NCBI GenBank assembly: GCA_947311475.1
Contig: CAMZLK010000056.1
Span: forward strand, 33,765-97,764
Source of the DNA: an uncultured Desulfocapsa sp.
Lineage (GTDB): Bacteria > Desulfobacterota > Desulfobulbia > Desulfobulbales > Desulfocapsaceae
DNA: 64,000 nt
Reading direction: 5' to 3'
Positions within the stretch are counted from its first letter, which is position 1; the number at the start of each line of letters is the position of its first letter. The notes beneath the pieces are model-generated. The model was not told the origin of the DNA, searched no databases, and saw only the letters and a program-made list of their open reading frames with translations. The position numbers and the translations under genes are program-made. This document shows, piece after piece, positions 40,084 to 52,527 of the stretch.

Positions 40084-41616
40084 CTAGTTGTTTGCATCTG
40101 GCAACAACAAAGTTGAACCGTTATACCCTTTCACCCCTGCAAGCTCAGCATCGTCAAGCAAAGCATCCTCAAGGTCTGCATCGGTAAGATCAGCACCTGA
40201 TAAATCTGCCCTGTATAAATCGGCCTCGGAAAGATCTGCACCGGTGAGATCGGCACCTCTCAAATTTACACCTTTCAAATTGGCCTTTCCAAAATCTACA
40301 TCCTTCAACGTGGCATTCCTGAGGTCTGCACCTTCGAGATCTGCGCTACCCAGATTTTCTCCGCTAAGATTTACTCCCTGGAGATTACATCCATAACATC
40401 GATTTATATCAATAAGTATTGCGGCATTTTTCATAACTTCCGTAGATGGCTCAGCTGTGGAAAATATATTTAAGACTTTTTCCAACACTCCTCGAGACTC
40501 GTTATTGGATTCTGCTAAAACTTCATTTTTAAGCTCAACTGTTTTTGATTCTTCTGTTAAATTTTGAGTGATCTCCGGTTGCGTTTTTTCTGGTTCAGCC
40601 GTTATACCCTGTGTAGAGGTAACGGAAGTCTCTTCTGATACCATATCGGATGTATGTGCTTCTTCGGTCCGAGTATTGTTTTCAACAGTATCAGGATGTT
40701 TCAAAGATTCAATTATGGTTTCACTTTTTGTTATGGAAGGTTCCCCTGCTGTGCTTCTGCTAACAACACTTTCTTTTGGAACTACCTTATCAATCTTATT
40801 TTCCTTTACAAGGACTTCACCTTCATCTGTTGTCTCTGGGATTACTTCAGGGCTTTGCACGTTTTTAATTTCTTCAACGTCAGGTATTGTTGAAGGAACA
40901 ACATCTTCACGAAGACGAACCTCATTCATGGCAGGAGCAGCCTTTGCTGCTGTTGCAGTAACACTCTCGGAAGGAAGCAATTCTATGGCCACCGTGGCAT
41001 CATCAGTGGAATTATCCTCAACGAGAACCGCAACCGGAGGACCTTGGGCAATCTTTTTTGAAATATTTTCAGTTGGTAGTACAGGTGGAGTTTCTTCAAA
41101 ATCTCGTCTGCTTCCAATTGTCAGGTCATCAGTCTTTTGTGGCGTTTTAGGTTTAACAGTATCTTCTACATACACTGATTCTTCCACATCACTAATTTTT
41201 TCTTCTGCATAAGGCTTTGTATTGAGCATTTCACCGTCCAACAAAGCACCAACCATATATGCACCCGCAAATAATGTTCCTGTTAAATCTGCACCACGCA
41301 TATCCGTATCGGCAAGGTCCGCACCTGTAAAAACTGCTTCACGAAGATCTGTATTTTGAAGATTGGCTCCTGAAAGATTTGTAAGTGCCATTGAGGCGCG
41401 CGATAAATTAGCACCGGCAAGATTGGCTCCTGAAAGCTCCAAACGGTTTAAATTGGCACCGCTAAGGTCACAATTCAGGCAACTTTTTGTTTTCGTAAGA
41501 GTCGTGATATTTTCCTGTACTTCATTTGAAGGTGAGAACTCTACGGCTTGTACTTGTACTGACAGTGGCATAAGCAGAACAAGAGTTAAAATAAAAAATC
41601 GTCCTAAACGATACAT
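40084..41616 (-). CDS. Exported pentapeptide-repeat protein with two repeat domains and an acidic linker
   Basis: Signal peptide (...SVQVQA); A(D/N)LxG repeats after CLNC at the N-terminus and after CYGC at the C-terminus; long E/T/P-rich spacer. Confidence 0.85.
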   Translation of the reverse strand: MYRLGRFFILTLVLLMPLSVQVQAVEFSPSNEVQENITTLTKTKSCLNCDLSGANLNRLELSGANLAGANLSRASMALTNLSGANLQNTDLREAVFTGADLADTDMRGADLTGTLFAGAYMVGALLDGEMLNTKPYAEEKISDVEESVYVEDTVKPKTPQKTDDLTIGSRRDFEETPPVLPTENISKKIAQGPPVAVLVEDNSTDDATVAIELLPSESVTATAAKAAPAMNEVRLREDVVPSTIPDVEEIKNVQSPEVIPETTDEGEVLVKENKIDKVVPKESVVSRSTAGEPSITKSETIIESLKHPDTVENNTRTEEAHTSDMVSEETSVTSTQGITAEPEKTQPEITQNLTEESKTVELKNEVLAESNNESRGVLEKVLNIFSTAEPSTEVMKNAAILIDINRCYGCNLQGVNLSGENLGSADLEGADLRNATLKDVDFGKANLKGVNLRGADLTGADLSEADLYRADLSGADLTDADLEDALLDDAELAGVKGYNGSTLLLPDANN

Positions 41617-42342: not shown

Positions 42343-44349
42343 ATGGGAGACATGAAAACCACTACCAGAAAAAAAATAGGCATTTTCACCGGTGTTTTCT
42401 TTGCTGTGCTGCTCACCATTACCGTGAGCAGTCGCAGTGCTCTGTCCATGAGCAATGAGGAATGCCTGGAATGCCATGGTGATGAAGATCTCACCAGAGA
42501 AAGCAACGACAGTTCTGTGTATGTCAATGCTGAGATCCTGGCTTCATCTATTCATGGTGATGAAGATTGTATTTCATGTCATCAGGATGCAGATACTGAG
42601 GATGAGCATCCCTCCAAACTGACCAAGGTGAACTGTGATGAATGTCACGAAGATGTCGGTAAGATATACGAGGAAAGTATACACGGGAAGGCGCGCAGCA
42701 GAGGCGATGCGCTTGCCCCCTATTGTTACACCTGCCATGGGACGCATGGTATATTGCCTCCAAGCGATCCCAATTCGAAAGTCTATGTAACTAACATTCC
42801 GAAGACATGCGGTCACTGTCATAAGGAAGGGTCACCTATGACCAAGACCCATGAAAATATCGACCAGCATAATGTTCTTCAGAATTTTTCCATGTCCATG
42901 CATGGCAAAGGCTTACTAAAATCCGGTCTTATTGTTGCTGCTGTATGCACAAGTTGCCACACCTCGCATAATGTCTTGCCTCACACAGATCCCGCCTCTT
43001 CAATCAATCGACATAATGTGGCAAAAACCTGTATGAAATGCCATGCCAATATTGAAAGAACTCACCAAAAGGTTATACGGAAAACGCTTTGGGAAAAAGA
43101 GACTCATAAAATACCCTCCTGCGTAGAATGCCATCAGCCGCACATCGAACGGCAAATAATGTATTCAGACAGCTTGACAGACGATTTCTGCATGAAATGT
43201 CATGATGATCCCAACCTTGTCATGGCCAATGACGAAGGCGGTATAAAAAGTCTTTATGTTGATCTGGAGGAATATGATGAATTTAGAGGAACCCTGCACA
43301 AAAAAGAAAAAATTGCCTGTGTGAAATGTCATTCAAATGTGGATATTGCACGGGAACCCATATGTATAAATTCCGGTCCGGTAGACTGCTCCGCCTGTCA
43401 TCCTGAAGAAAACGATATCTTTCAGAAGAGTATCCACGGAAAATTACTTGCAAAATTAGACCCAAATGCACCAGGATGCACCGACTGTCATGGCAAACAC
43501 GCCAATATGTCGAAAGCCAATCCCGATTCTCCCATTAACCCCATAAATATCCCATTGCTTTGTGGCTCGTGCCACCAGGAAGGCAAAAAGGCTGCGGTCA
43601 GGATAAAAAAGGGGCATGAACATAATATTGTCAGCACTTATTCAATGAGTATCCATGGTAAAGGGCTTGTAAAGAGTGGCCTTCTGGTTTCTGCTACCTG
43701 CGCGAGCTGTCATACAGGGCACTCCATACTGCCTCAGTCAGATCCTGATTCGACTGTCAACCGGAATCATGTAACTGCGACCTGTGAAACCTGTCATTAT
43801 GGTGTTGCCAGAAAAATCAAACAATCCGTTCACAACACACCAGTAGGAGCAGATAGTTCACGTTTCCCAACATGCAGCGACTGCCATTCAGCACACGGCG
43901 CCGCCAGGATTACGGAAGCAGCCTTTAGAAAACAACAGGCAGCAGAGTGTGAGAAATGCCATCAGGAACAGGTGGAAACCTATCGAGAGAGCTATCATGG
44001 CAAGGCATCCATGCTGGCAGGCGGTGAAAGGGCAGCGCAATGCTCCGACTGCCATGGAAGTCATAGTATGTTGCCTGCGACCGATCCTGATGCGACCCTG
44101 TCTGGAGATAATGCAGTGAGAACTTGTCGCAAATGTCACCCTGGTGCGAATTTAAGTTTTACCACTTATAGAACTCACGCCACCCATAGTGATAAAGAAC
44201 ATAACCCTGATATGTATTATGTATTCTGGAGCATGACCATCTTGCTCCTTGGCACTTTTTCGCTTTTCGGTTTACATACCCTACTCTGGATTCCGCGTTC
44301 CCTAAAAGAACGACTAGAGTTAAGGAAAGCCCGGAAACAAAAGAAATAA
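42343..44349 (+). CDS. Membrane-anchored 19-heme cytochrome c (CbcL-like c domain, internally duplicated)
   Basis: 19 CxxCH motifs counted by hand; signal peptide; C-terminal TM helix (GTFSLFGLHTLLWIPR). Start at 42343 or 42352. Confidence 0.9.
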   Translation: MGDMKTTTRKKIGIFTGVFFAVLLTITVSSRSALSMSNEECLECHGDEDLTRESNDSSVYVNAEILASSIHGDEDCISCHQDADTEDEHPSKLTKVNCDECHEDVGKIYEESIHGKARSRGDALAPYCYTCHGTHGILPPSDPNSKVYVTNIPKTCGHCHKEGSPMTKTHENIDQHNVLQNFSMSMHGKGLLKSGLIVAAVCTSCHTSHNVLPHTDPASSINRHNVAKTCMKCHANIERTHQKVIRKTLWEKETHKIPSCVECHQPHIERQIMYSDSLTDDFCMKCHDDPNLVMANDEGGIKSLYVDLEEYDEFRGTLHKKEKIACVKCHSNVDIAREPICINSGPVDCSACHPEENDIFQKSIHGKLLAKLDPNAPGCTDCHGKHANMSKANPDSPINPINIPLLCGSCHQEGKKAAVRIKKGHEHNIVSTYSMSIHGKGLVKSGLLVSATCASCHTGHSILPQSDPDSTVNRNHVTATCETCHYGVARKIKQSVHNTPVGADSSRFPTCSDCHSAHGAARITEAAFRKQQAAECEKCHQEQVETYRESYHGKASMLAGGERAAQCSDCHGSHSMLPATDPDATLSGDNAVRTCRKCHPGANLSFTTYRTHATHSDKEHNPDMYYVFWSMTILLLGTFSLFGLHTLLWIPRSLKERLELRKARKQKK

Positions 44350-44390
44350 AGTCTGTAAATGGTAGTGCTTGAAGAGAATAAGATATCCAA

Positions 44391-44528
44391 TAACGCAGAT
44401 AAACTGCAAGTAAGTGCTTCCAAGGCTTCTCTTCGTTCGCTATCTATTGCTATTCGTAAGATTTTGATATTGTTTCACTCTCATATATTCTTGTTTTTTA
44501 TTGCAGGAATCATAGGGTAAGGCACAAA
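44391..44528 (+). repeat. Repeat family A, copy 4 (between the c and b cytochrome genes)
   Basis: TAACGCAGATAAACTGCAAGTAAGTGC...CTTCGTTCGCTATCTATTGCTATTCGTAAGATTTTGATATTG...GTAAGGCACAAA, closely similar to 1717-1855. Confidence 0.85.
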
Positions 44529-44576
44529 TAATCCTGGTATCTGTACTGAATGTGTTTAAAAATAGGGTAAGCTGAA

Positions 44577-45422
44577 ATGAGTAAAACAAAAACAATATAC
44601 GTCCAGAGATTTACTGTATTTGCCAGAGTTCTACACCTCACAGTAATCATCAGTTTTTTAACCCTCGCACTGACCGGTATGGCCTTGAAATTTGCCGATG
44701 AGCCTTGGGCCGGTGCCATAGCCAGCTTCTTTGGAAGTTTCAAGGTATTGGGAGTTTTGCACAGGATTGGGGCAGTTCTGACATTTGCCTACTTTTTTCT
44801 GCATTTCATTTTGATTTATCAGAATTGGCGTAAAACCAACAAATCGCTCCTGAGTTTTCTCTTTGATAAAACCATCGGTATGGTTCCCAATCTTCAAGAT
44901 TTAAAAGAAATAGGGCAAACACTTAAATGGTTTGTCGGTAAGGGGCCCAAGCCACGTTACGGCCGCTGGACCTACTGGGAGAAATTTGATTACTTTGCTG
45001 TATTCTGGGGTGTAGCTGTCATTGGTCTTACCGGAATCTGTCTCTGGTTTCCAGTCTGGGTAACTCAATACATCCCCGGTTCCTGGCTGAACATTGCGAC
45101 AATTATCCATAGTGACGAAGCGCTTCTGGCCACCGGTTTTATTTTCACCATTCATTTTTTCAATACCCACATTAGACCTGAAAAATACCCACTGGATCGG
45201 GTAATCTTTACCGGCTCAATTACTTTGGATGAGTTAAAGCATGAGCGGCCACGCGAATATGAAATGCTGGTGAAAGAAGGTCGTTTAGACGACGTTATAG
45301 TTGACAAACCTCCCAGGTGGCTTGTCATATTTGCGTACGTTTTTGGTTTCACTGCATTAACTATTGGTATGTTCCTTGTTTTTACTATTATTTATACGAT
45401 AGCGACGTTGACCTTTGGCTAA
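44577..45422 (+). CDS. Di-heme cytochrome b, quinol-interacting (FdnI/CbcL-b type)
   Basis: QRF...RVLH, LHRIGA, GRWTYWEKFDYFAVFWG, IIHSDEALLA, IHFFNTH; about 5 TM helices with candidate His ligands. Confidence 0.88.
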   Translation: MSKTKTIYVQRFTVFARVLHLTVIISFLTLALTGMALKFADEPWAGAIASFFGSFKVLGVLHRIGAVLTFAYFFLHFILIYQNWRKTNKSLLSFLFDKTIGMVPNLQDLKEIGQTLKWFVGKGPKPRYGRWTYWEKFDYFAVFWGVAVIGLTGICLWFPVWVTQYIPGSWLNIATIIHSDEALLATGFIFTIHFFNTHIRPEKYPLDRVIFTGSITLDELKHERPREYEMLVKEGRLDDVIVDKPPRWLVIFAYVFGFTALTIGMFLVFTIIYTIATLTFG

Positions 45423-45459
45423 AAGGTCTGTGTCCCGGATAATGTGCATTCAGGTTTGA

Positions 45460-45765
45460 GTGGTAATGCATAATAGACTACCGACACATACGCGTCTCGG
45501 CACATATATTACCATGGCACTCTTGTTACTTTTTTTTCTTTTTATGCTGAGAAATTGTGCCAGCGCACTGTATTATGGTACAATAACCAATGACTTGGAT
45601 ATTTCCAGGTCATACCAGTCAGGTTTTGCAGATGGCCAGGAGCAAAGTGAAAATCTGAAAGGACAGCCCAAAAAACACATTGCGAATCCACTTCTTTTAA
45701 AAATGTACAGAAAGGGATTTCGTGACAGTAGAGATAAAAACAGGTGTAAAGATGAAATACGTTAA
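45460..45765 (+). CDS. Small membrane-anchored hypothetical protein
   Basis: One hydrophobic helix, Y..GF.DG and YRKGF.D repeats; 12 nt from the next gene. Confidence 0.55.
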   Translation: MVMHNRLPTHTRLGTYITMALLLLFFLFMLRNCASALYYGTITNDLDISRSYQSGFADGQEQSENLKGQPKKHIANPLLLKMYRKGFRDSRDKNRCKDEIR

Positions 45766-45777
45766 GAAGAGGAAAAA

Positions 45778-46563
45778 ATGAAAAGAAAGAGCCATATAAC
45801 CATATTCTCCGTTTTTCTTTTTTGTTGCCTTAGCTCATCGCCCGCTTTTGTGTTTTCTGACGTTATAGATATTCCGACCATCGAAGCGGAAGCATTAAAA
45901 AACGAATTGTACCATGGAGCGCCGATGGTTCTTGCCAATGCTTTGAGTTCCATAGAATTTAAAGATTTAACCATCAAAGAATCGGTTAATATACCATCGA
46001 GTAAAGTACAGGGAAATCTAAATCTTCCAAAGGATAAAGATGAATTATTTGTTTTCTTCTGCAAAGGACCTGGCTGACTTAAGAGCATTATAGCTGCCAG
46101 GAAGGCAGTAAAACTTGGATATACAAATGTTAAATTATATAATGGTGGACTTCCTGATTGGATCAGAAGGAGATATCCGGTTATTCGCACTATCAACTAT
46201 CCAAAGGCAGATATCCCTCTGATGTACCCTGAGCAGGTTCTTTCAATGCTTGATAAAATAGTTATACTTGATATTGGTGGAGAAGCGCTACGACAGATAG
46301 GTGAATTTAATCAGGGGGAAGTCGTACATATACCCATTGATGATCTTGAAGAAAAATATAGTGATCTCCCTAAAGATAAAAAAATTATGATTGTTGACGT
46401 AATGGGTAAACAGGAAGAAATTGCTGGTAGGTTTTTGACGTCCAAAGGCTACAAAAATCTGGCGGCAATTAATGGTGGTGGCCGTGCCTGGTTCATGGCA
46501 GTCAGAATAAATGAAAAGCAAAAAAAAGAAACTTCTGAAAAAGCTTTAAATAACCAGAAGTAA
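45778..46563 (+). CDS. Exported tandem rhodanese-domain protein with selenocysteine (UGA at 46075-46077), 261 aa
   Basis: Signal peptide. FVFFCKGPG-TGA-LKSIIAARKAVKLGYTNVKLYNGGLPDW continues without stops (48 codons) into the 46222..46563 ORF in the same frame. SECIS-like hairpin follows. Confidence 0.8.
46093..46109 (+). promoter_or_regulatory. Putative bacterial SECIS hairpin
   Basis: GCTGCC-AGGAA-GGCAGT; the loop starts 21 nt after the UGA with G at loop position 2, fitting the general bacterial SECIS model. Confidence 0.65.
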
Positions 46564-46628
46564 TGGATCCCTTTCCAGTCAAAGATAGCAATGGCTCAGG
46601 TCAGGAAGTTCTCATCAGAATTTCCCGG

Positions 46629-46798
46629 GAGCTTGTCTGAGAATAGGCATTTTGGTCAAAATCGAAGAATTTTTGAAAATAAGTACAGCCATGTATCTAA
46701 TATTAAGAACATTATTTTCCAACAATTCTGAAGAGTTTGGCCAGGTAGCGAACAAAGAGAGACCTTCGAGGCACTTACTTGCAGTTTATCTGCGTTAG
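46629..46798. repeat. Composite repeat: family B left part fused to a reverse family A end
   Basis: GAGCTTGTCTGAGAAT...ACAATTCTGAAGAGTTTGG (B) abuts GGTAGCGAACAAAGAGAGACCTTCGAGGCACTTACTTGCAGTTTATCTGCGTTAG (A, reverse). Confidence 0.8.
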
Positions 46799-47184
46799 TA
46801 TCGTTAGGCTGGTATCGATACTGAAAAGCACATAGATTTCATTCATTTCCACCCCAAAACTACTCAACTGATTACCATCCCATAAAATTTTTACCCCCTC
46901 CTGTTTTTTGTGTAGAAAGGTTCTACCCTACTTCTTTTTCGATCCAATATACTCTCGCGCTCTTTCAGTATTTTATTATTTTATAATATCTTTAAACTGA
47001 GACTTGACAAACAGGAAAGATGGCAGTATGCATCTTCCTCAGTAGTTGAATTTCACCACTTCGTAGTAGCACACTATGTGGTGATAACGATAATTACTCT
47101 CAGTTTTTATTACTCCTGAATCTTTAATTGCAAGTTTCATTGTCACTTCATTTCACACTGTTCAATATCTACCGGAGCATTAAA

Positions 47185-48129
47185 ATGATCAAAAGCCCTT
47201 TGTTACAAAACAGCATTATTGGTATTTCCGTATCTTTTATATTTGCAGGATACAGTTTGGCCAATGACAATTATGATGTCAAAGAATCTGGCCCTAAGAG
47301 TGACATTATCTGGAACCAACCTATTAAAGCGACATTCAGTCATAAAGTCCATACAATGGATGCTGGTTTAAGTTGTTCAGAGTGCCATGACGACATCTTC
47401 TTCATGCAAAGAGGCACTGCTGTTAACAGCCAGAGATTCACCATGAAAGCCATGGATGAAGGTCAATTTTGTGGTAGCTGCCATGATGGCGATACTGCCT
47501 TTTCAACAAAAACAAACTGTATGGCCTGCCATGCGGCATCAGAAGAGCCCATTATGTGGGATCAACCAACTAAAGCAGCATTCAGCCATAAAGCCCATGT
47601 AGAAGAATTCGAGCTTGAGTGCGGAAGTTGCCATAATAGCATCTTCACCATGAAAAAAGGAGCAGCAGAAAACAATAAAAACTTTACAATGGCTACATTT
47701 AGAGAAGGCAAATATTGCGGATCTTGTCACAACGGTGATGATGCTTTCGATTCCACTACCCAATGTGAAGCATGTCATTTCCCCCCCACTGAAAAGATTG
47801 TCTTCACCCAGCCAGTGAAAGCGGTTGTTTTCGACCATAATATTCACTTAAAAAATGGTGGCCTTTCATGTGAATCGTGTCACAAAGAAGTATTCGCCAT
47901 GAAACAGGGAACAGTTGAAGGGCATGAACTGATCCTGTCAGACGATCCTGTGGAAAAGCGAAAATACCTTGAATCCCTTCATAGTCAATATTGTGGTTCA
48001 TGTCATGATTCATCACAGGCATTCGGGTATCTTACAAGATGCACTGTCTGTCATGTTGGAGTGAAGGGTTTAAAAAAGCTTCAAAAAGGAGAGAAAAAGA
48101 AAGATGCTCATGAAACAAGTGCTCATTAA
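47185..48129 (+). CDS. Nonaheme cytochrome c made of three c7-type triheme domains
   Basis: 9 CxxCH; three repeats of FSH/FDH..H....C..CH..IF.M....M....G..CGSCH...AF....C..CH; signal peptide; ATG 47185 after GGAG. Confidence 0.9.
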   Translation: MIKSPLLQNSIIGISVSFIFAGYSLANDNYDVKESGPKSDIIWNQPIKATFSHKVHTMDAGLSCSECHDDIFFMQRGTAVNSQRFTMKAMDEGQFCGSCHDGDTAFSTKTNCMACHAASEEPIMWDQPTKAAFSHKAHVEEFELECGSCHNSIFTMKKGAAENNKNFTMATFREGKYCGSCHNGDDAFDSTTQCEACHFPPTEKIVFTQPVKAVVFDHNIHLKNGGLSCESCHKEVFAMKQGTVEGHELILSDDPVEKRKYLESLHSQYCGSCHDSSQAFGYLTRCTVCHVGVKGLKKLQKGEKKKDAHETSAH

Positions 48130-48196
48130 CACAACCTACCTGCCTACAAACTGAGTGAGCAACTATAGCTTTTACTATTAATTGAGAGGAGAAAAA

Positions 48197-49504
48197 ATGA
48201 CTGGAAGAATGGTTAACATTTCCAAGAAATGGGGCTTTCATGGCATCGAAGCCTTGAAAAATGCAAGCCCGTTATACAAAATAACCATGGGCTTTTTTGC
48301 CCTTCTCGCACTCGCAGGTGCCGCAGTAGGTGTTCACGGCATGATAGTCGGATATCATCATGTTTATGGGGTCAGCAGGCAGATATCCTGGGGCTTACTC
48401 ATATCCACCTACATTTTCTGCGTTGTTACATCAACAGGGCTCTGTATCATTTCATCCATTGGCCATGTTTTTGGTGGTGAGGCCTTTATGCCCATCGCAA
48501 AACGTGCCGTTTTCATGTCCATCGTTTTTATGTTTGGCGGCTTCTGCATTATTTTCTTCGATATTGAGAACCCATTCAGAATGGCCATATGGAATGTTTT
48601 TTCACCAAACTTTGTCTCAAATATGTGGTGGATGGGAACACTCTATGGCATGTATCTGGTATTCATGATGATTGAATACTACTTTCTGCTGGAGCAAAAC
48701 CATACCTTATCCAGATTGATGGGCTTTTTTGGTCTTGTTGTGGGAATTGCAGCCCATAGTAACCTCGGTGCGGTATTCGGTATGCTGCATGGACGTCCTT
48801 TCTGGTATGGCCCTTACCTTCCCATTTATTTCATTTTTTCTGCCGCCATGTCAGGTGGATGTGCAATTCTCTTCTTCACGACTCTTGGCTGGAAAATCAA
48901 TCCTGATATTATGAATCAGAGAATGGAACGGGCAATCAAAGCCGTTACCCAGGTCACTATCTTTCTTATTTCTGTTATTATCTTTTTTACCATCTGGAAA
49001 ATCATTACAGGCATGGTGTCAGAAGGAAAACATCTTGTTATCATGTCATTCCTCACAGGTGAATATGCAACTAATTTCTGGCTTTTTGAGATATTTCTTG
49101 GAATGGTGCTTCCCCTTTTACTCCTCATCCGCTCACGGGGTAACAACTTCAATCTAATCATGTTCGCAACCGGTCTTATGATGGTTGGTATCTTTTTTAT
49201 GCGTTATGACATTGTTATCCCTGGTCAAATAGAATCTGTATACCATTCACTTGGTGTGGTGGAAGAAGCAGAACTGCTCACATATACCCCATCTTTTCAT
49301 GAAATCATGGCTTCTCTATTTGGTATTGCATTTGTCTGTTTAGCCTACTTTTCTGGCGAAAAAATTCTTAACGGACACCAACTTGAAAAACATGAAATCG
49401 TACCTGAAGGCGGCTATATCTGCCTAGGCTGTGGTGGTATTCACTTTATGGAGGAAGGAGAGACTGAAGAAGACGCCATGAAACGTCATCACAAAATCTG
49501 GTAG
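48197..49504 (+). CDS. NrfD/PsrC-family quinone-interacting membrane subunit
   Basis: WGL.ISTYIF, F..IAKRAVF, DIENPFR, SNMWWMG.LY, HSNLGAVFG....RPFW; about 10 TM helices. Confidence 0.9.
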   Translation: MTGRMVNISKKWGFHGIEALKNASPLYKITMGFFALLALAGAAVGVHGMIVGYHHVYGVSRQISWGLLISTYIFCVVTSTGLCIISSIGHVFGGEAFMPIAKRAVFMSIVFMFGGFCIIFFDIENPFRMAIWNVFSPNFVSNMWWMGTLYGMYLVFMMIEYYFLLEQNHTLSRLMGFFGLVVGIAAHSNLGAVFGMLHGRPFWYGPYLPIYFIFSAAMSGGCAILFFTTLGWKINPDIMNQRMERAIKAVTQVTIFLISVIIFFTIWKIITGMVSEGKHLVIMSFLTGEYATNFWLFEIFLGMVLPLLLLIRSRGNNFNLIMFATGLMMVGIFFMRYDIVIPGQIESVYHSLGVVEEAELLTYTPSFHEIMASLFGIAFVCLAYFSGEKILNGHQLEKHEIVPEGGYICLGCGGIHFMEEGETEEDAMKRHHKIW

Positions 49505-49571
49505 TAAGAATTCCTTTACCATAAACAGTCCAACACCTAACTGAACAACTATTTATAAGGATAATCAGCAC

Positions 49572-50396
49572 ATGAAATTTCCTAAAATACATTTTGATGA
49601 TATGAAGAATGAGGGTACCGGCTCAGTTACTGCTCACGAAAGAAGAAAATTCCTCAAGCTTGGCCTGGCCGTAGCTGGGGTATATGCAGGTGGCAAGATA
49701 CTTTCTCTAACTTCCATTGTAGGAACTGCCCATGCCTCAAGCGGCATCAGTATCGTAAAGAAATATCCGTACAACCCGCATTACAGCATGGTTATTCGTC
49801 AATCCCTCTGCATAGACTGTGAGAAATGCGTGGATGCCTGCAACGAGATCAACAATGTCCCTGAATATGGATACAGAACCCGTATTCTGACAAAAAAATA
49901 CACCGGATCCCTGGACAAACAGGTCGAGTTCATTCCGGTACTTTGCAACCATTGTAACAATGCGCCATGCGTACGAGCGTGCCCTACAAAAGCAACCTAT
50001 AAAGATCCGGTTACGGGAATTGTTCGCATGGAGAGTAAAAAATGCATCGGATGTAAAACCTGTATGCTGGCTTGCCCTTACGATGCACGATATTTCAGTG
50101 CAGAGAGGCGTGCCATAGACAAATGTGATTTCTGCTGGGACGAACGATTATCCAAGGGAGACACGCAAACAGGCTGTTCTGCCGCCTGCCCAACAGGTGC
50201 AAGAACTTTTGGTAACCTTACGGATCCTGACAATATAGTCTACAAGCTGATTCATCAACTCGAAGAACAGATCTGGGTAATACGTCCGGCAGATGATACC
50301 AAACCGAATGTTTTCTATATGAAAGGAAATATGCGTTCTGTGGACAACATCCTCAATGAACAGAAGTTTAAATACTTTGACCCCAACAAATCATAA
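49572..50396 (+). CDS. Tat-exported 4x[4Fe-4S] ferredoxin (NrfC/PsrB/DsrO family)
   Basis: ERRKFLK Tat motif; CIDCEKCVDAC, CNHCNNAPCVRAC, CIGCKTCMLAC, CDFC...CSAAC. Confidence 0.92.
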   Translation: MKFPKIHFDDMKNEGTGSVTAHERRKFLKLGLAVAGVYAGGKILSLTSIVGTAHASSGISIVKKYPYNPHYSMVIRQSLCIDCEKCVDACNEINNVPEYGYRTRILTKKYTGSLDKQVEFIPVLCNHCNNAPCVRACPTKATYKDPVTGIVRMESKKCIGCKTCMLACPYDARYFSAERRAIDKCDFCWDERLSKGDTQTGCSAACPTGARTFGNLTDPDNIVYKLIHQLEEQIWVIRPADDTKPNVFYMKGNMRSVDNILNEQKFKYFDPNKS

Positions 50397-50656: not shown

Positions 50657-51235
50657 TCACAGCTTCTTATTGATCCGCTCTCCTGTTAATAACTGCAGGT
50701 TGCCAGAGAGCCGGTAACTACGGACCTTATAAAACCCGGATTGTTCCAGAAGATCTCGCAAAGCAACTGGTCGAGAATTTGGATTTTCCCTGTTTTTCAT
50801 TGCTGCAGTAACCAACAATCCTCCGGGTTTTAAGAGCATTTTACAGTATTGTAGTAATTCCATGTGCCTGTTCTTTGGGTAATCAGATAAAAACTCAAAA
50901 AAATACAGCAGATCAAATACCGGTAGTTCCATAAAGCTGTTTATATCTGACACCACGACTTTCAGATTTTTCTCTCTCATTTGCTCTTTCAATTCAAGCG
51001 GAATATCAGAAGATCTTCGTATTAGAGCAGTACCCTGTACAGACGAATTCCTTCCTGTGGCACGTAACAGGCGCTTGCCATCTATACAGCCCACGTCCAA
51101 CACGTTGCAGCTACCTTTTGGGGGAATGGTTTTTTGAATGACTCTTCTTCTTATGTCTTCATCTCCTATGCTTTTTCCCCTGCCAGGGAAGAATGGAAAC
51201 GAATACCAGGGCAGGACGTTCGTTGCAGATAGCAT
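50657..51235 (-). CDS. Class I SAM-dependent methyltransferase-like protein (divergent)
   Basis: VLDVGC motif I (followed by atypical IDG), FDLLYF, LLKPGGLLV. Confidence 0.6.
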   Translation of the reverse strand: MLSATNVLPWYSFPFFPGRGKSIGDEDIRRRVIQKTIPPKGSCNVLDVGCIDGKRLLRATGRNSSVQGTALIRRSSDIPLELKEQMREKNLKVVVSDINSFMELPVFDLLYFFEFLSDYPKNRHMELLQYCKMLLKPGGLLVTAAMKNRENPNSRPVALRDLLEQSGFYKVRSYRLSGNLQLLTGERINKKL

Positions 51236-51633: not shown

Positions 51634-52527
51634 ATGGAACTATATCAACTTCGTACCTTTGCAGCTGTCGCCAAAACCGGACATTTAACACGGGCCGCAG
51701 AACAATTAGCCACAAGCCAACCTGCCATAAGCGCACAGATAAAGGCACTTGAAGGAGAATTTAAAACATCGCTTTTTACCAGAACTGCAAAAGGAATGGT
51801 GCTGACTGCCGCAGGAAATGAGATTCTAAAACATGCGGAAACAGTTCTTGCTGAAAGCGAACGCCTCCTTCAAAGAGCAAGAACGCTACAAACTGAATTA
51901 GTTGGTACTGTAAGTCTTGGCTTAAGTGAGGATGGAAACTTTTGGCAGATTGAGCAGCTGTGCAATCTTATCGCTGCCAGACATAAAAGAATAAAACTTG
52001 GTATATACAACAGCAGTTCACGCTTTATTCTCCAGGATATCATTAAAGGTGCGCTTGATTGTGGTTTTATATTTGGCGATTTTCCCAAAAATAAAGTCTC
52101 CGGTTTTTTTCTGCGCCCTCAAAAAATAATGGTAACGGCGCCAGTAGCATGGGAACACCGTATTGTTGGGGCAACATGGGAAGAAATACTCCTTCTGCCA
52201 TGGGCCTGGCTGGCCCCAGATTGCGCTTATCGCATAAAAGCAATGGAATTATTTGAAGCCAAAAATTTAAAACCTCCGGAATCGACAGTTTCAGCAGATA
52301 TGGATGCCACTGTTCTGACCATTGTAGCATCAGGATCCTGCGTTGGTTTAATCAAAGAACCAGATGCACTGGAGGCAGTAAAACAAGGTAAAATAGTTAT
52401 CTGGGAAGGAGACTACCTGGAGGTTGACCTCCATTTTGTATTTAAGCGAGAACGGCTGCAGGATCCTTTAATTCAATCTATTTTGGATATGGTGAAGGAG
52501 ATATGGAGGCCAGAATCCGTTTTGTAA
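51634..52527 (+). CDS. LysR-family transcriptional regulator
   Basis: QLRTFAAVA..G.LTRAAEQL..SQPAISAQIKALE HTH, LFTRT.KG..LT.AG. Confidence 0.92.
   Translation: MELYQLRTFAAVAKTGHLTRAAEQLATSQPAISAQIKALEGEFKTSLFTRTAKGMVLTAAGNEILKHAETVLAESERLLQRARTLQTELVGTVSLGLSEDGNFWQIEQLCNLIAARHKRIKLGIYNSSSRFILQDIIKGALDCGFIFGDFPKNKVSGFFLRPQKIMVTAPVAWEHRIVGATWEEILLLPWAWLAPDCAYRIKAMELFEAKNLKPPESTVSADMDATVLTIVASGSCVGLIKEPDALEAVKQGKIVIWEGDYLEVDLHFVFKRERLQDPLIQSILDMVKEIWRPESVL

Follow-up and report, generated by a model that had tools for sequence, protein, structure and literature searches.

A putative selenocysteine rhodanese in a transferable cytochrome bc cassette beside a c7-NrfCD module: candidate links between periplasmic sulfur and quinones in an uncultured Desulfocapsa

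Results

Gene content of the locus

The DNA analysed here is a 64-kb stretch (the window, to which all coordinates refer) from the genome of an uncultured Desulfocapsa sp., called G000 below. In this study we focus on a locus of seven genes, all on the + strand between 42.3 and 50.4 kb, that encode a 19-haem cytochrome c (cytA19), a dihaem cytochrome b (cytB), a small membrane protein, an exported rhodanese with an in-frame UGA (rhd), a nonahaem cytochrome (c7x3), a quinone-interacting membrane subunit (nrfD) and an iron-sulfur protein (nrfC). The CXXCH motifs of the locus number 19 in CytA19 plus nine in c7x3. The original prediction, made from the sequence alone, had described these co-oriented genes, their haem motifs, the dihaem cytochrome b, the NrfD protein and the 4x[4Fe-4S] protein exported by twin-arginine translocation (Tat), and it was correct in every particular, positions included. 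The features are as follows.

42343..44349 (open reading frame open from 42235), + strand: CytA19, 19-haem c-type cytochrome; 19 CXXCH motifs, N-terminal signal or anchor, C-terminal transmembrane helix
44577..45422, + strand: CytB, dihaem b-type membrane cytochrome of the FdnI/HydC type; PF01292, 36 bits (cut-off 30.1)
45460..45765, + strand: small protein of 101 amino acids with a single transmembrane helix; no Pfam or NCBIfam match
45778..46563, + strand: Rhd, predicted exported tandem-rhodanese selenoprotein of 261 amino acids, obtained by reading through a single TGA; PF00581 match across the UGA
46075..46077, + strand: in-frame UGA read as selenocysteine (Sec), codon 100; TGA in the closest orthologues, Sec machinery present
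46093..46109, + strand: hairpin resembling a selenocysteine insertion sequence (SECIS), GCUGCC-AGGAA-GGCAGU; 6 bp, 18 nt after the UGA
46564..47184, no strand: intergenic spacer of 621 nt between the cytA19-to-rhd cassette and the NrfCD module
47185..48129, + strand: c7x3, exported nonahaem cytochrome of three c7 triheme domains; nine CXXCH motifs, PF14522 (145 bits) and TIGR04257 (179 bits), each in three stretches
48182..49504, + strand: NrfD-family integral membrane quinone-interacting subunit; PF03916, 90 bits (cut-off 25.8), at least nine transmembrane helices
49572..50396, + strand: NrfC-type Tat-exported 4x[4Fe-4S] protein; RRKFLK Tat motif, four Cys clusters, PF13247 (81 bits) and other Fer4 families

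The genes cytB, small and rhd are tightly packed, with gaps of 37 and 12 nt, and in one metagenome copy they overlap by 14 nt. The 621-nt spacer stands out against the other gaps of the locus, which measure 12-227 nt. A terminator scan found no convincing + strand terminator in it, and both promoter-like sites (24, against 25.1 expected) and terminator-like sites (13, against 8.8 expected) were at background in our scans. The locus is flanked by the pentapeptide gene (40084-41616, -) and the methyltransferase-like gene (50657-51235, -), and open reading frame and family checks confirmed that the stretch from one to the other encodes no molybdopterin protein, NrfA or hydrogenase; nor was a molybdoenzyme found in the window. 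The locus was compared with a sample of 401 Desulfobulbia genomes, with a GTDB scan of one genome per species and with metagenome contigs.

The cytochrome bc pair and the small protein

The C-terminal transmembrane helix of CytA19 bears a conserved histidine, His681. Among the cytA orthologues, 15 encode 19 haems and 11 a short form with 11 haems. The short form (L068-L080) aligns with the C-terminal half of CytA19 (residues 313-704), and the 19-haem form is internally self-similar (29-35% identity), which points to an internal duplication of the haem module. Conserved outside the motifs are 22 histidines, 21 of them periplasmic. One cysteine lies outside the CXXCH motifs, Cys377 (43363-43365, numbered on the full open reading frame; context REPICINSG), and it is invariant in 15 of 15 orthologues with 19 haems. 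A catalytic haem with His/Cys ligation was considered for CytA19 and rejected: we found no evidence for it, and the 21 conserved periplasmic histidines suffice for bis-His ligation of 19 haems. A search of PDB sequences with CytA19 returned nothing useful.

When aligned with Escherichia coli FdnI (1KQF_C), CytB keeps the four haem-ligand histidines (H20, H62, H179 and H193); its score against the FdnI-gamma family TIGR01583, 44 bits, is below cut-off. CytB is presumed to form a menaquinone/menaquinol site. Orthologues of cytB (at least 58% identity) occur in about 47 of the 401 Desulfobulbia genomes, and in all 30 loci read cytB adjoins a cytA-like gene of the 19- or 11-haem form. The small gene always lies between cytB and rhd within the cassette, and just three relatives of its product were found in a large protein collection. 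Since weaker homologues occur near cytA-cytB loci that have no rhodanese, the small protein belongs more probably to the core complex, and it is probably a subunit of the bc unit.

A rhodanese with a C-x4-U loop

The PF00581 match covers residues 40-129 of Rhd and spans U100, which lies in the domain 1 loop F-F-C95-K-G-P-G-U100-L-K-S. C95 takes the place of the canonical rhodanese cysteine in the alignment; with two residues more than usual, the loop has the selenocysteine five positions further on. Domain 2 is inactive, with an aspartate at the catalytic position. The AlphaFold2 model has a predicted local distance difference test score (pLDDT) of 87.9, and its best fold match is the tandem rhodanese 6mxv.

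The in-frame UGA almost certainly encodes selenocysteine, as originally predicted, because full-length database homologues carry cysteine at the U100 position, the hairpin covaries, and tRNA-Sec, SelA and SelB are all present in the G000 genome. The TGA codon is kept in the six closest orthologues among the GTDB species loci, is replaced by TGT or TGC in more distant ones and reappears in a still more distant clade. The alternation of Sec and Cys at one loop position points to a residue that is critical for redox or catalysis. In the alignment the hairpin shows one compensatory change, U-A to C-G, in three of seven sequences, and it cannot form in the Cys-type rhd genes. Folding of the SECIS region as a single sequence gave no significant result (z = -0.9), and the support for the hairpin is that of the alignment.

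Rhd falls below the cut-offs of the two nearest curated families of rhodanese selenoproteins, scoring 65 against 115 for NF041203 (form 3) and 46 against 805 for TsoB, NF045694 (form 5), which is its nearest selenoprotein match in NCBIfam. A 2026 review lists the motifs UxxS, UxxG, CxU and UxxxxU, and C-x4-U is not among them; TsoB is described there as a rhodanese/DsbD fusion with a U-x4-U motif (PMC13188914). Rhd resembles the catalogued forms 1-5 in having selenocysteine in the rhodanese active-site loop, and it shares the x4 spacing with TsoB, which is fused to a DsbD-like electron-transfer module. It differs from them in its C-x4-U motif with the canonical cysteine retained, and in being free-standing, exported and encoded in a cytochrome operon. 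The C-x4-U form can be added to the catalogued rhodanese selenoproteins, which gene callers split in two.

At least three further rhodanese selenoprotein candidates are present in G000 (C52:11058-12434, -; C101:325-1311, -; C5:1784-2620, +). Two of them are multi-domain, apparent lipoproteins with an L-x-G-C lipobox and a C-G-G-P-T-U loop, again C-x4-U. In the remaining one, U occupies the canonical catalytic position, in Y-U-H-S-G-V-R-S (U-x-x-G type).

Linkage of the rhodanese to the cytochromes

The one-genome-per-species scan for relatives of rhd returned 23 loci. The gene order cytA19-cytB-small-rhd is found in nine of the nine GTDB species loci whose rhd is at least 54% identical, and also in nine genomes found through cytB, which partly overlap these species loci, and in two metagenome contigs. 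Among the sampled Desulfobulbia genomes, 10 of 401 hold this cassette. Indeed, small and rhd follow cytB only in the clade whose cytB identity is at least 77% (10 genomes), and a rhodanese-family profile gave nothing but one weak match within 10 kb of the other cytA-cytB loci. Judged by this distribution, the rhodanese was added in one clade to a complex that does without it in other genomes.

Different histories of the two modules

LepA, whose gene is in the window, shares 91% and 88% identity with the proteins of two genomes of the same genus, against 83% with that of g46, a genus of another family. NrfD behaves alike, with 91% (G037) and 89% (G133) identity within the genus against 75% in g46; c7x3 is 70% and 66% identical to its same-genus orthologues. 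The pattern of CytB is the opposite: it is 89-92% identical to its g46 counterparts and has no orthologue in the same-genus genomes G037 and G133. In G037 the backbone HisG-FKBP-response regulator-CheW-response regulator-pentapeptide is intact; a paralogous nrfC-c7-nrfD module comes next, and the orthologous c7x3-nrfD-nrfC lies about 8 kb beyond it. From the opposite identity patterns and the G037 backbone we conclude that the four-gene cassette cytA19-cytB-small-rhd (module 1) was acquired laterally in G000 from a g46-like donor. The c7x3-NrfD-NrfC module (module 2), on the evidence of these identities, is vertically inherited. By origin, then, the locus consists of two separable units and is not one system, and the 621-nt spacer marks where the acquired cassette meets the native NrfCD module.

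The relative position of the two modules also varies: c7x3-nrfD-nrfC follows the cassette in the window, precedes it, co-oriented, in L010-L014 and is divergent from it in G207. In G037 the paralogous nrfC-c7-nrfD (L110:11826-14645; 55%, 52% and 34% identity) occupies the site that the acquired cassette has in G000. The CheW and response-regulator genes upstream were considered as members of the locus and rejected, being part of the conserved genus backbone.

Within module 2, the nearest NCBIfam families of NrfC are NrfC, DsrO and TtrB, all below cut-off. After its last transmembrane helix NrfD carries a C-terminal tail of about 50 residues that contains the sequence G-Y-I-C-L-G-C-G-G-I-H (tail region 49420-49450), whose C-x-x-C is unusual for cofactor-less NrfD proteins.

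A molybdoenzyme elsewhere in the genome

In g46 the genes stand in the row chaperone-PsrA-PsrB-c7x3-nrfD-nrfC-cytA19-cytB-small-rhd (L012/L013, G318), in which a TorD/NarJ-like chaperone gene is followed by a PsrA/PhsA-type molybdopterin subunit and an FeS subunit. Orthologues of this PsrA and PsrB (85% and 70% identity) are present in G000 on contig C76, in a chaperone-PsrA-PsrB trio (C76:12095-15747, -), and a second such trio lies at C191:1226-4876 (+). The C76 PsrA matches the Thermus polysulfide reductase 2VPW_A over its full length (E = 5e-158), and the trio is conserved in 12 of 12 relatives' loci. The same-genus genome G133 has both trios back to back.

No NrfD/PsrC anchor lies beside PsrAB in the C76 and C191 units of G000, nor in the loci of 10 relatives whose DNA is readable beyond PsrB. 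It has been reported that PsrC is not consistently present in Desulfobulbaceae other than cable bacteria (PMC13047784), and that Qrc is absent from Desulfobulbales (PMC10553843). Anchorless PsrAB must draw its electrons from soluble or membrane cytochromes, for which the two modules are obvious candidates. The conventional catalyst is probably encoded elsewhere, not missing. A query with the C76 PsrA (E <= 1e-150) matched 239 of the 401 genomes, counting both the C76 and C191 types; the C191 type, being found in most of the class, is uninformative as a partner.

G000 also has DsrAB and a Sec-type molybdoenzyme resembling formate dehydrogenase (Fdh). MccSep/ExtKL was considered as a hidden partner and rejected, there being no family member in G000: the best match there to the Sec-pentahaem cytochrome family NF040886 reaches 27.8 bits against a cut-off of 250. 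MccSep was found in none of the eight genomes with a Sec-type cassette against 176 of 401 overall, a difference confounded by phylogeny, since most of the eight belong to genera none of whose sampled genomes yielded MccSep, g46 among them. The MccSep/ExtKL-family genes of these 176 genomes mostly have one in-frame TGA, and a subset in genus g22 has no such stop, which indicates Cys forms.

Discussion

Proposed function

We tentatively favour, with a confidence somewhat short of even, a role of the locus in quinone-linked periplasmic sulfur reduction, in which the Sec-rhodanese would be a clade-specific accessory that handles sulfur in the manner of Sud or ExtH, the two modules would serve electron transfer and the PsrAB enzymes would be supplied from elsewhere in the genome. 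Module 1 would be a CbcBA-type bc complex, carried by the laterally acquired cassette. CytB would exchange electrons with menaquinol/menaquinone and pass them to the membrane-anchored 19-haem periplasmic wire. The Cys95/Sec100 loop of Rhd would bind sulfane sulfur (polysulfide, or S0 derived from thiosulfate) or selenium as a Cys-S-(S)n-Se-Sec adduct, which would either take up electrons from the haem wire or be passed to a reductase, as Sud does for Psr and as Cys and Sec do in MccSep. Module 2 would act as a quinone:cytochrome c oxidoreductase of the Cbc4/Nhc/Qrc kind, and the two anchorless PsrAB-type molybdoenzymes (C76 and C191) would be fed with electrons by such cytochrome modules. We infer these electron-flow steps, the substrate and the partnership with PsrAB from what is seen of gene content, the Sec reading, synteny, the lateral and vertical histories and the anchorless PsrAB. 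Rhd itself may deliver sulfur to PsrAB, be acted on by the haem wire as its substrate, or work as a sensor.

Sud serves Psr in the polysulfide respiration of Wolinella succinogenes. MccSep (extKL) is a polysulfide reductase that combines Sec, Cys and haem, in which the haems supply the electrons that reduce a Sec-(S/Se)-Cys intermediate; the rhodanese lipoprotein ExtH is encoded in the same cluster (PMC13510729; PMC5877670). The C-x4-U loop is most readily understood as a two-chalcogen site that would bind sulfane sulfur or selenium, a reading supported by the precedents of MccSep, Sud and TsoB.

Comparison with known systems

By its architecture, module 1 is likened to CbcBA (Cbc5) and CbcL of Geobacter sulfurreducens, in which a dihaem b subunit of the FdnI/HydC type also stands beside a periplasmic multihaem cytochrome c with a C-terminal, His-bearing transmembrane anchor, and in which there is no catalytic subunit. 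CbcB and CbcL themselves share no sequence homology with each other (bioRxiv 10.1101/2021.04.15.440034). Module 1 differs from them in its haem number, 19 (or 11) where they have 7 or 9, the comparison with CbcBA being 19 against 7, in that CytB itself keeps all four histidines, and in the extra small transmembrane protein and Sec-rhodanese of its operon; no sigma54/BccR regulator was seen.

Module 2 has the composition of Cbc4 (CbcSTU) of Geobacter, of NhcABCD and HmcABC of Desulfovibrio and of QrcABCD, namely a multihaem cytochrome c with a Tat-exported 4x[4Fe-4S] NrfC-like protein and an NrfD-like protein, and no catalytic subunit. Its cytochrome consists of three c7 triheme domains and is neither of the NapC/NirT tetrahaem nor of the c3 type. 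Unlike in QrcABCD, there is no QrcB at the locus, and QrcA scores 47 against a cut-off of 180 bits; the equivalog cut-offs of HmcC (57/550), DsrP (39/350) and QrcC (93/400) are likewise above the scores obtained.

An exported rhodanese linked genetically to parts of a quinone-linked periplasmic polysulfide or thiosulfate reductase is also found in Sud-PsrABC of Wolinella and in the highly expressed rhodanese-molybdopterin-Psr operon of Desulfurivibrio alkaliphilus (PMC5516251). In g46, PsrAB is in the same gene row. The G000 rhodanese is set apart from these systems by its tandem domains and C-x4-U loop, and PsrAB in G000 is without the PsrC anchor and on another contig, the cytochrome modules standing where PsrC would be. 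With ExtH and ExtKL (MccSep) of the Geobacter ext cluster the locus shares the combination of a rhodanese, selenocysteine and a multihaem cytochrome c with a Sec/Cys reactive centre. Here, however, Sec is in the rhodanese and not in the cytochrome, G000 has no MccSep-family gene and the cassette has no porin. Each part is of a known kind; as far as our full-text searches of the literature show, the combination of a mobile bc cassette and a C-x4-U selenorhodanese beside c7-NrfCD, in g46 also beside PsrAB, has not been described.

Points against a sulfur-reducing role

A number of observations weigh against sulfur reduction. About 37 of about 47 cytA-cytB genomes have no rhodanese within 10 kb, and the rhodanese can therefore not be a catalytic subunit required by the core complex. 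The 13 more distant relatives of rhd (below 50% identity; L018-L030) all adjoin a gene for a methyl-accepting chemotaxis protein (MCP; 13 of the 15 loci read) and have no cytochromes nearby. This adjacency suggests that the wider C-x4-[C/U] tandem rhodanese family is a periplasmic partner in sulfur or redox sensing. Moreover, in one cassette rhodanese, P0030 (metagenome contig L119, rhd 1622-2416), Asp and Met replace the Cys and Sec of the loop; its gene nonetheless follows cytB and the small gene, and 1.1 kb further downstream there is another rhodanese gene, which encodes a single domain. The MCP linkage of the relatives and the loss of both residues in P0030 argue against an indispensable catalytic role of the rhodanese. 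On the side of the reductase, adjacency to PsrAB is confined to the one genus g46 (G318, G250 and probably G350), and PsrA of the C76 type is present in just 4 of the 10 cassette genomes. Furthermore, relatives of CbcBA and CbcL are tied to metal reduction in Geobacter (bioRxiv 10.1101/2021.04.15.440034) and D. alkaliphilus (PMC12545173), and c7x3-NrfDC might work in reverse, taking the place of Qrc with no bearing on sulfur.

These results also change what was made of the locus at first. The proposed synteny of the rhodanese held for cytA19 and cytB, to which it is linked in all nine species loci; the arrangement relative to NrfCD is variable, and the distant relatives lie beside MCP genes. 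The inference that the Sec-rhodanese is the only candidate substrate-handling enzyme is not supported in that form, in view of the rhodanese-less genomes and P0030. A role in the handling of sulfur compounds still gives the most coherent reading, whereas the premise of one system gives way to two modules with different histories in three arrangements. The original prediction had named a molybdopterin partner of NrfCD encoded elsewhere as an outcome that would speak against it, and this is in part what we see, with PsrAB adjacent in g46 and an orthologue on C76 in G000 as its presumptive partner. Both the premise of one system and that of a locus lacking any catalytic subunit are weakened.

Alternative explanations

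The best of the alternatives, in our view unlikely, is generic periplasmic or extracellular electron transfer, in which menaquinol oxidases like CbcBA/CbcL and Cbc4 would deliver electrons to metal oxides, electrodes or syntrophs and the rhodanese would serve protection or maintenance, for example by removing sulfane sulfur or selenite. The architecture equals that of CbcBA and Cbc4, D. alkaliphilus induces a CbcL homologue when it respires iron oxide (PMC12545173), and the cytA-cytB core is widespread without the rhodanese; an anchored wire of 19 haems could, besides, span the periplasm. However, the open reading frames read between 24.6 and 54.7 kb of the window include neither a porin-cytochrome nor an outer-membrane conduit, the Sec/Cys rhodanese is kept under selection in the 10 cassette genomes, and PsrAB is adjacent in g46.

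It is less probable that the cassette by itself is a molybdenum-free quinol:sulfane-sulfur (or selenium) oxidoreductase, a transferable four-gene block in which the free-standing Cys-x4-Sec rhodanese would be the terminal site, reduced directly by the 19-haem wire. If so, it would be a functional convergence with MccSep, with the selenium on the sulfur carrier instead of the cytochrome.

We consider it improbable that the rhodanese is a periplasmic sulfur or redox sensor or gate, whose Cys-Sec loop would report sulfane sulfur or redox state and modulate the bc complex, in parallel to a possible signalling of its relatives to chemoreceptors. The MCP genes beside the distant relatives fit such a sensor, as do a gene for CheW and a pair of response-regulator genes that G000 and G037 have immediately upstream of the locus, and P0030 keeps its place in the cassette without Cys or Sec. 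On the other hand, selenocysteine is costly and typical of catalytic redox sites, the cassette contains neither a signalling domain nor an MCP gene, and the upstream Che-type genes form part of the conserved genus backbone and lie outside the cassette.

Slightly less probable again is the strict form of the original prediction, in which sulfane sulfur or selenium would be reduced (or oxidised) by the Sec-rhodanese itself, as a terminal enzyme free of molybdenum, connected to the quinone pool through both modules, which would form one system of seven genes. There is no other catalytic gene at the locus, C-x4-U is plausible as a two-chalcogen redox site, and MccSep shows that Sec, Cys and haem electrons suffice for polysulfide reduction; the absence of MccSep from the eight Sec-cassette genomes would also fit, though it is confounded by genus. 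Against it stand the different histories and variable arrangement of the modules, a core that works without the rhodanese in most lineages, P0030 without both residues and the anchorless PsrAB genes of G000, and G037 and G133 already suggest that the NrfCD module functions without the cassette.

We regard as very unlikely that c7x3-NrfD-NrfC is a Qrc substitute, reducing menaquinone with periplasmic electrons from Fdh or hydrogenase for sulfate respiration, and adjoins the cassette through a chance of insertion: the absence of Qrc from Desulfobulbales (PMC10553843), the weak QrcA and QrcC matches, the vertical module in same-genus genomes without the cassette, and DsrAB and the Fdh-like molybdoenzyme in G000 agree with it, but the cassette stands next to NrfCD in at least three independent arrangements in different genera, and the linkage cytA-cytB-nrfD-nrfC also occurs in families without the rhodanese (L062, L067, L074).

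Significance for sulfur metabolism

In sediments, the Desulfobulbales are drivers of sulfide oxidation, of sulfur disproportionation and of cryptic sulfur cycling. In these Qrc-less bacteria, with their many anchorless Psr/Phs-type reductases, the link between periplasmic sulfur and the quinones has so far been unclear, and the locus provides concrete candidates for it in the CbcBA-like 19-haem complex and the c7-NrfCD module, to which the mobile cassette adds a selenocysteine rhodanese. If this rhodanese gives sulfane sulfur to the haem wire, or is reduced by it, the cassette would be a second, independent case of selenium-assisted polysulfide reduction after MccSep, and a useful genomic marker.

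Neighbouring genes

Three genes that flank the locus complete the description of the region.

50657-51235, - strand: methyltransferase-like gene
51634-52527, downstream of the locus: LysR regulator
40084..41616, - strand: exported pentapeptide-repeat protein of 510 amino acids; NCBIfam pentapeptide families, two repeat blocks and a long low-complexity linker

Among the NCBIfam families the LysR regulator scores best on 'selenium metabolism-associated LysR' (119 bits, where the cut-off is 250), and it also matches weakly the 'multiheme cytochrome-associated LysR' family; by score it is a member of neither. The pentapeptide gene is a conserved neighbour of the modules: homologues follow rhd directly in L009-L013, and that of the same-genus genome G037 adjoins the paralogous nrfC-c7-nrfD module.

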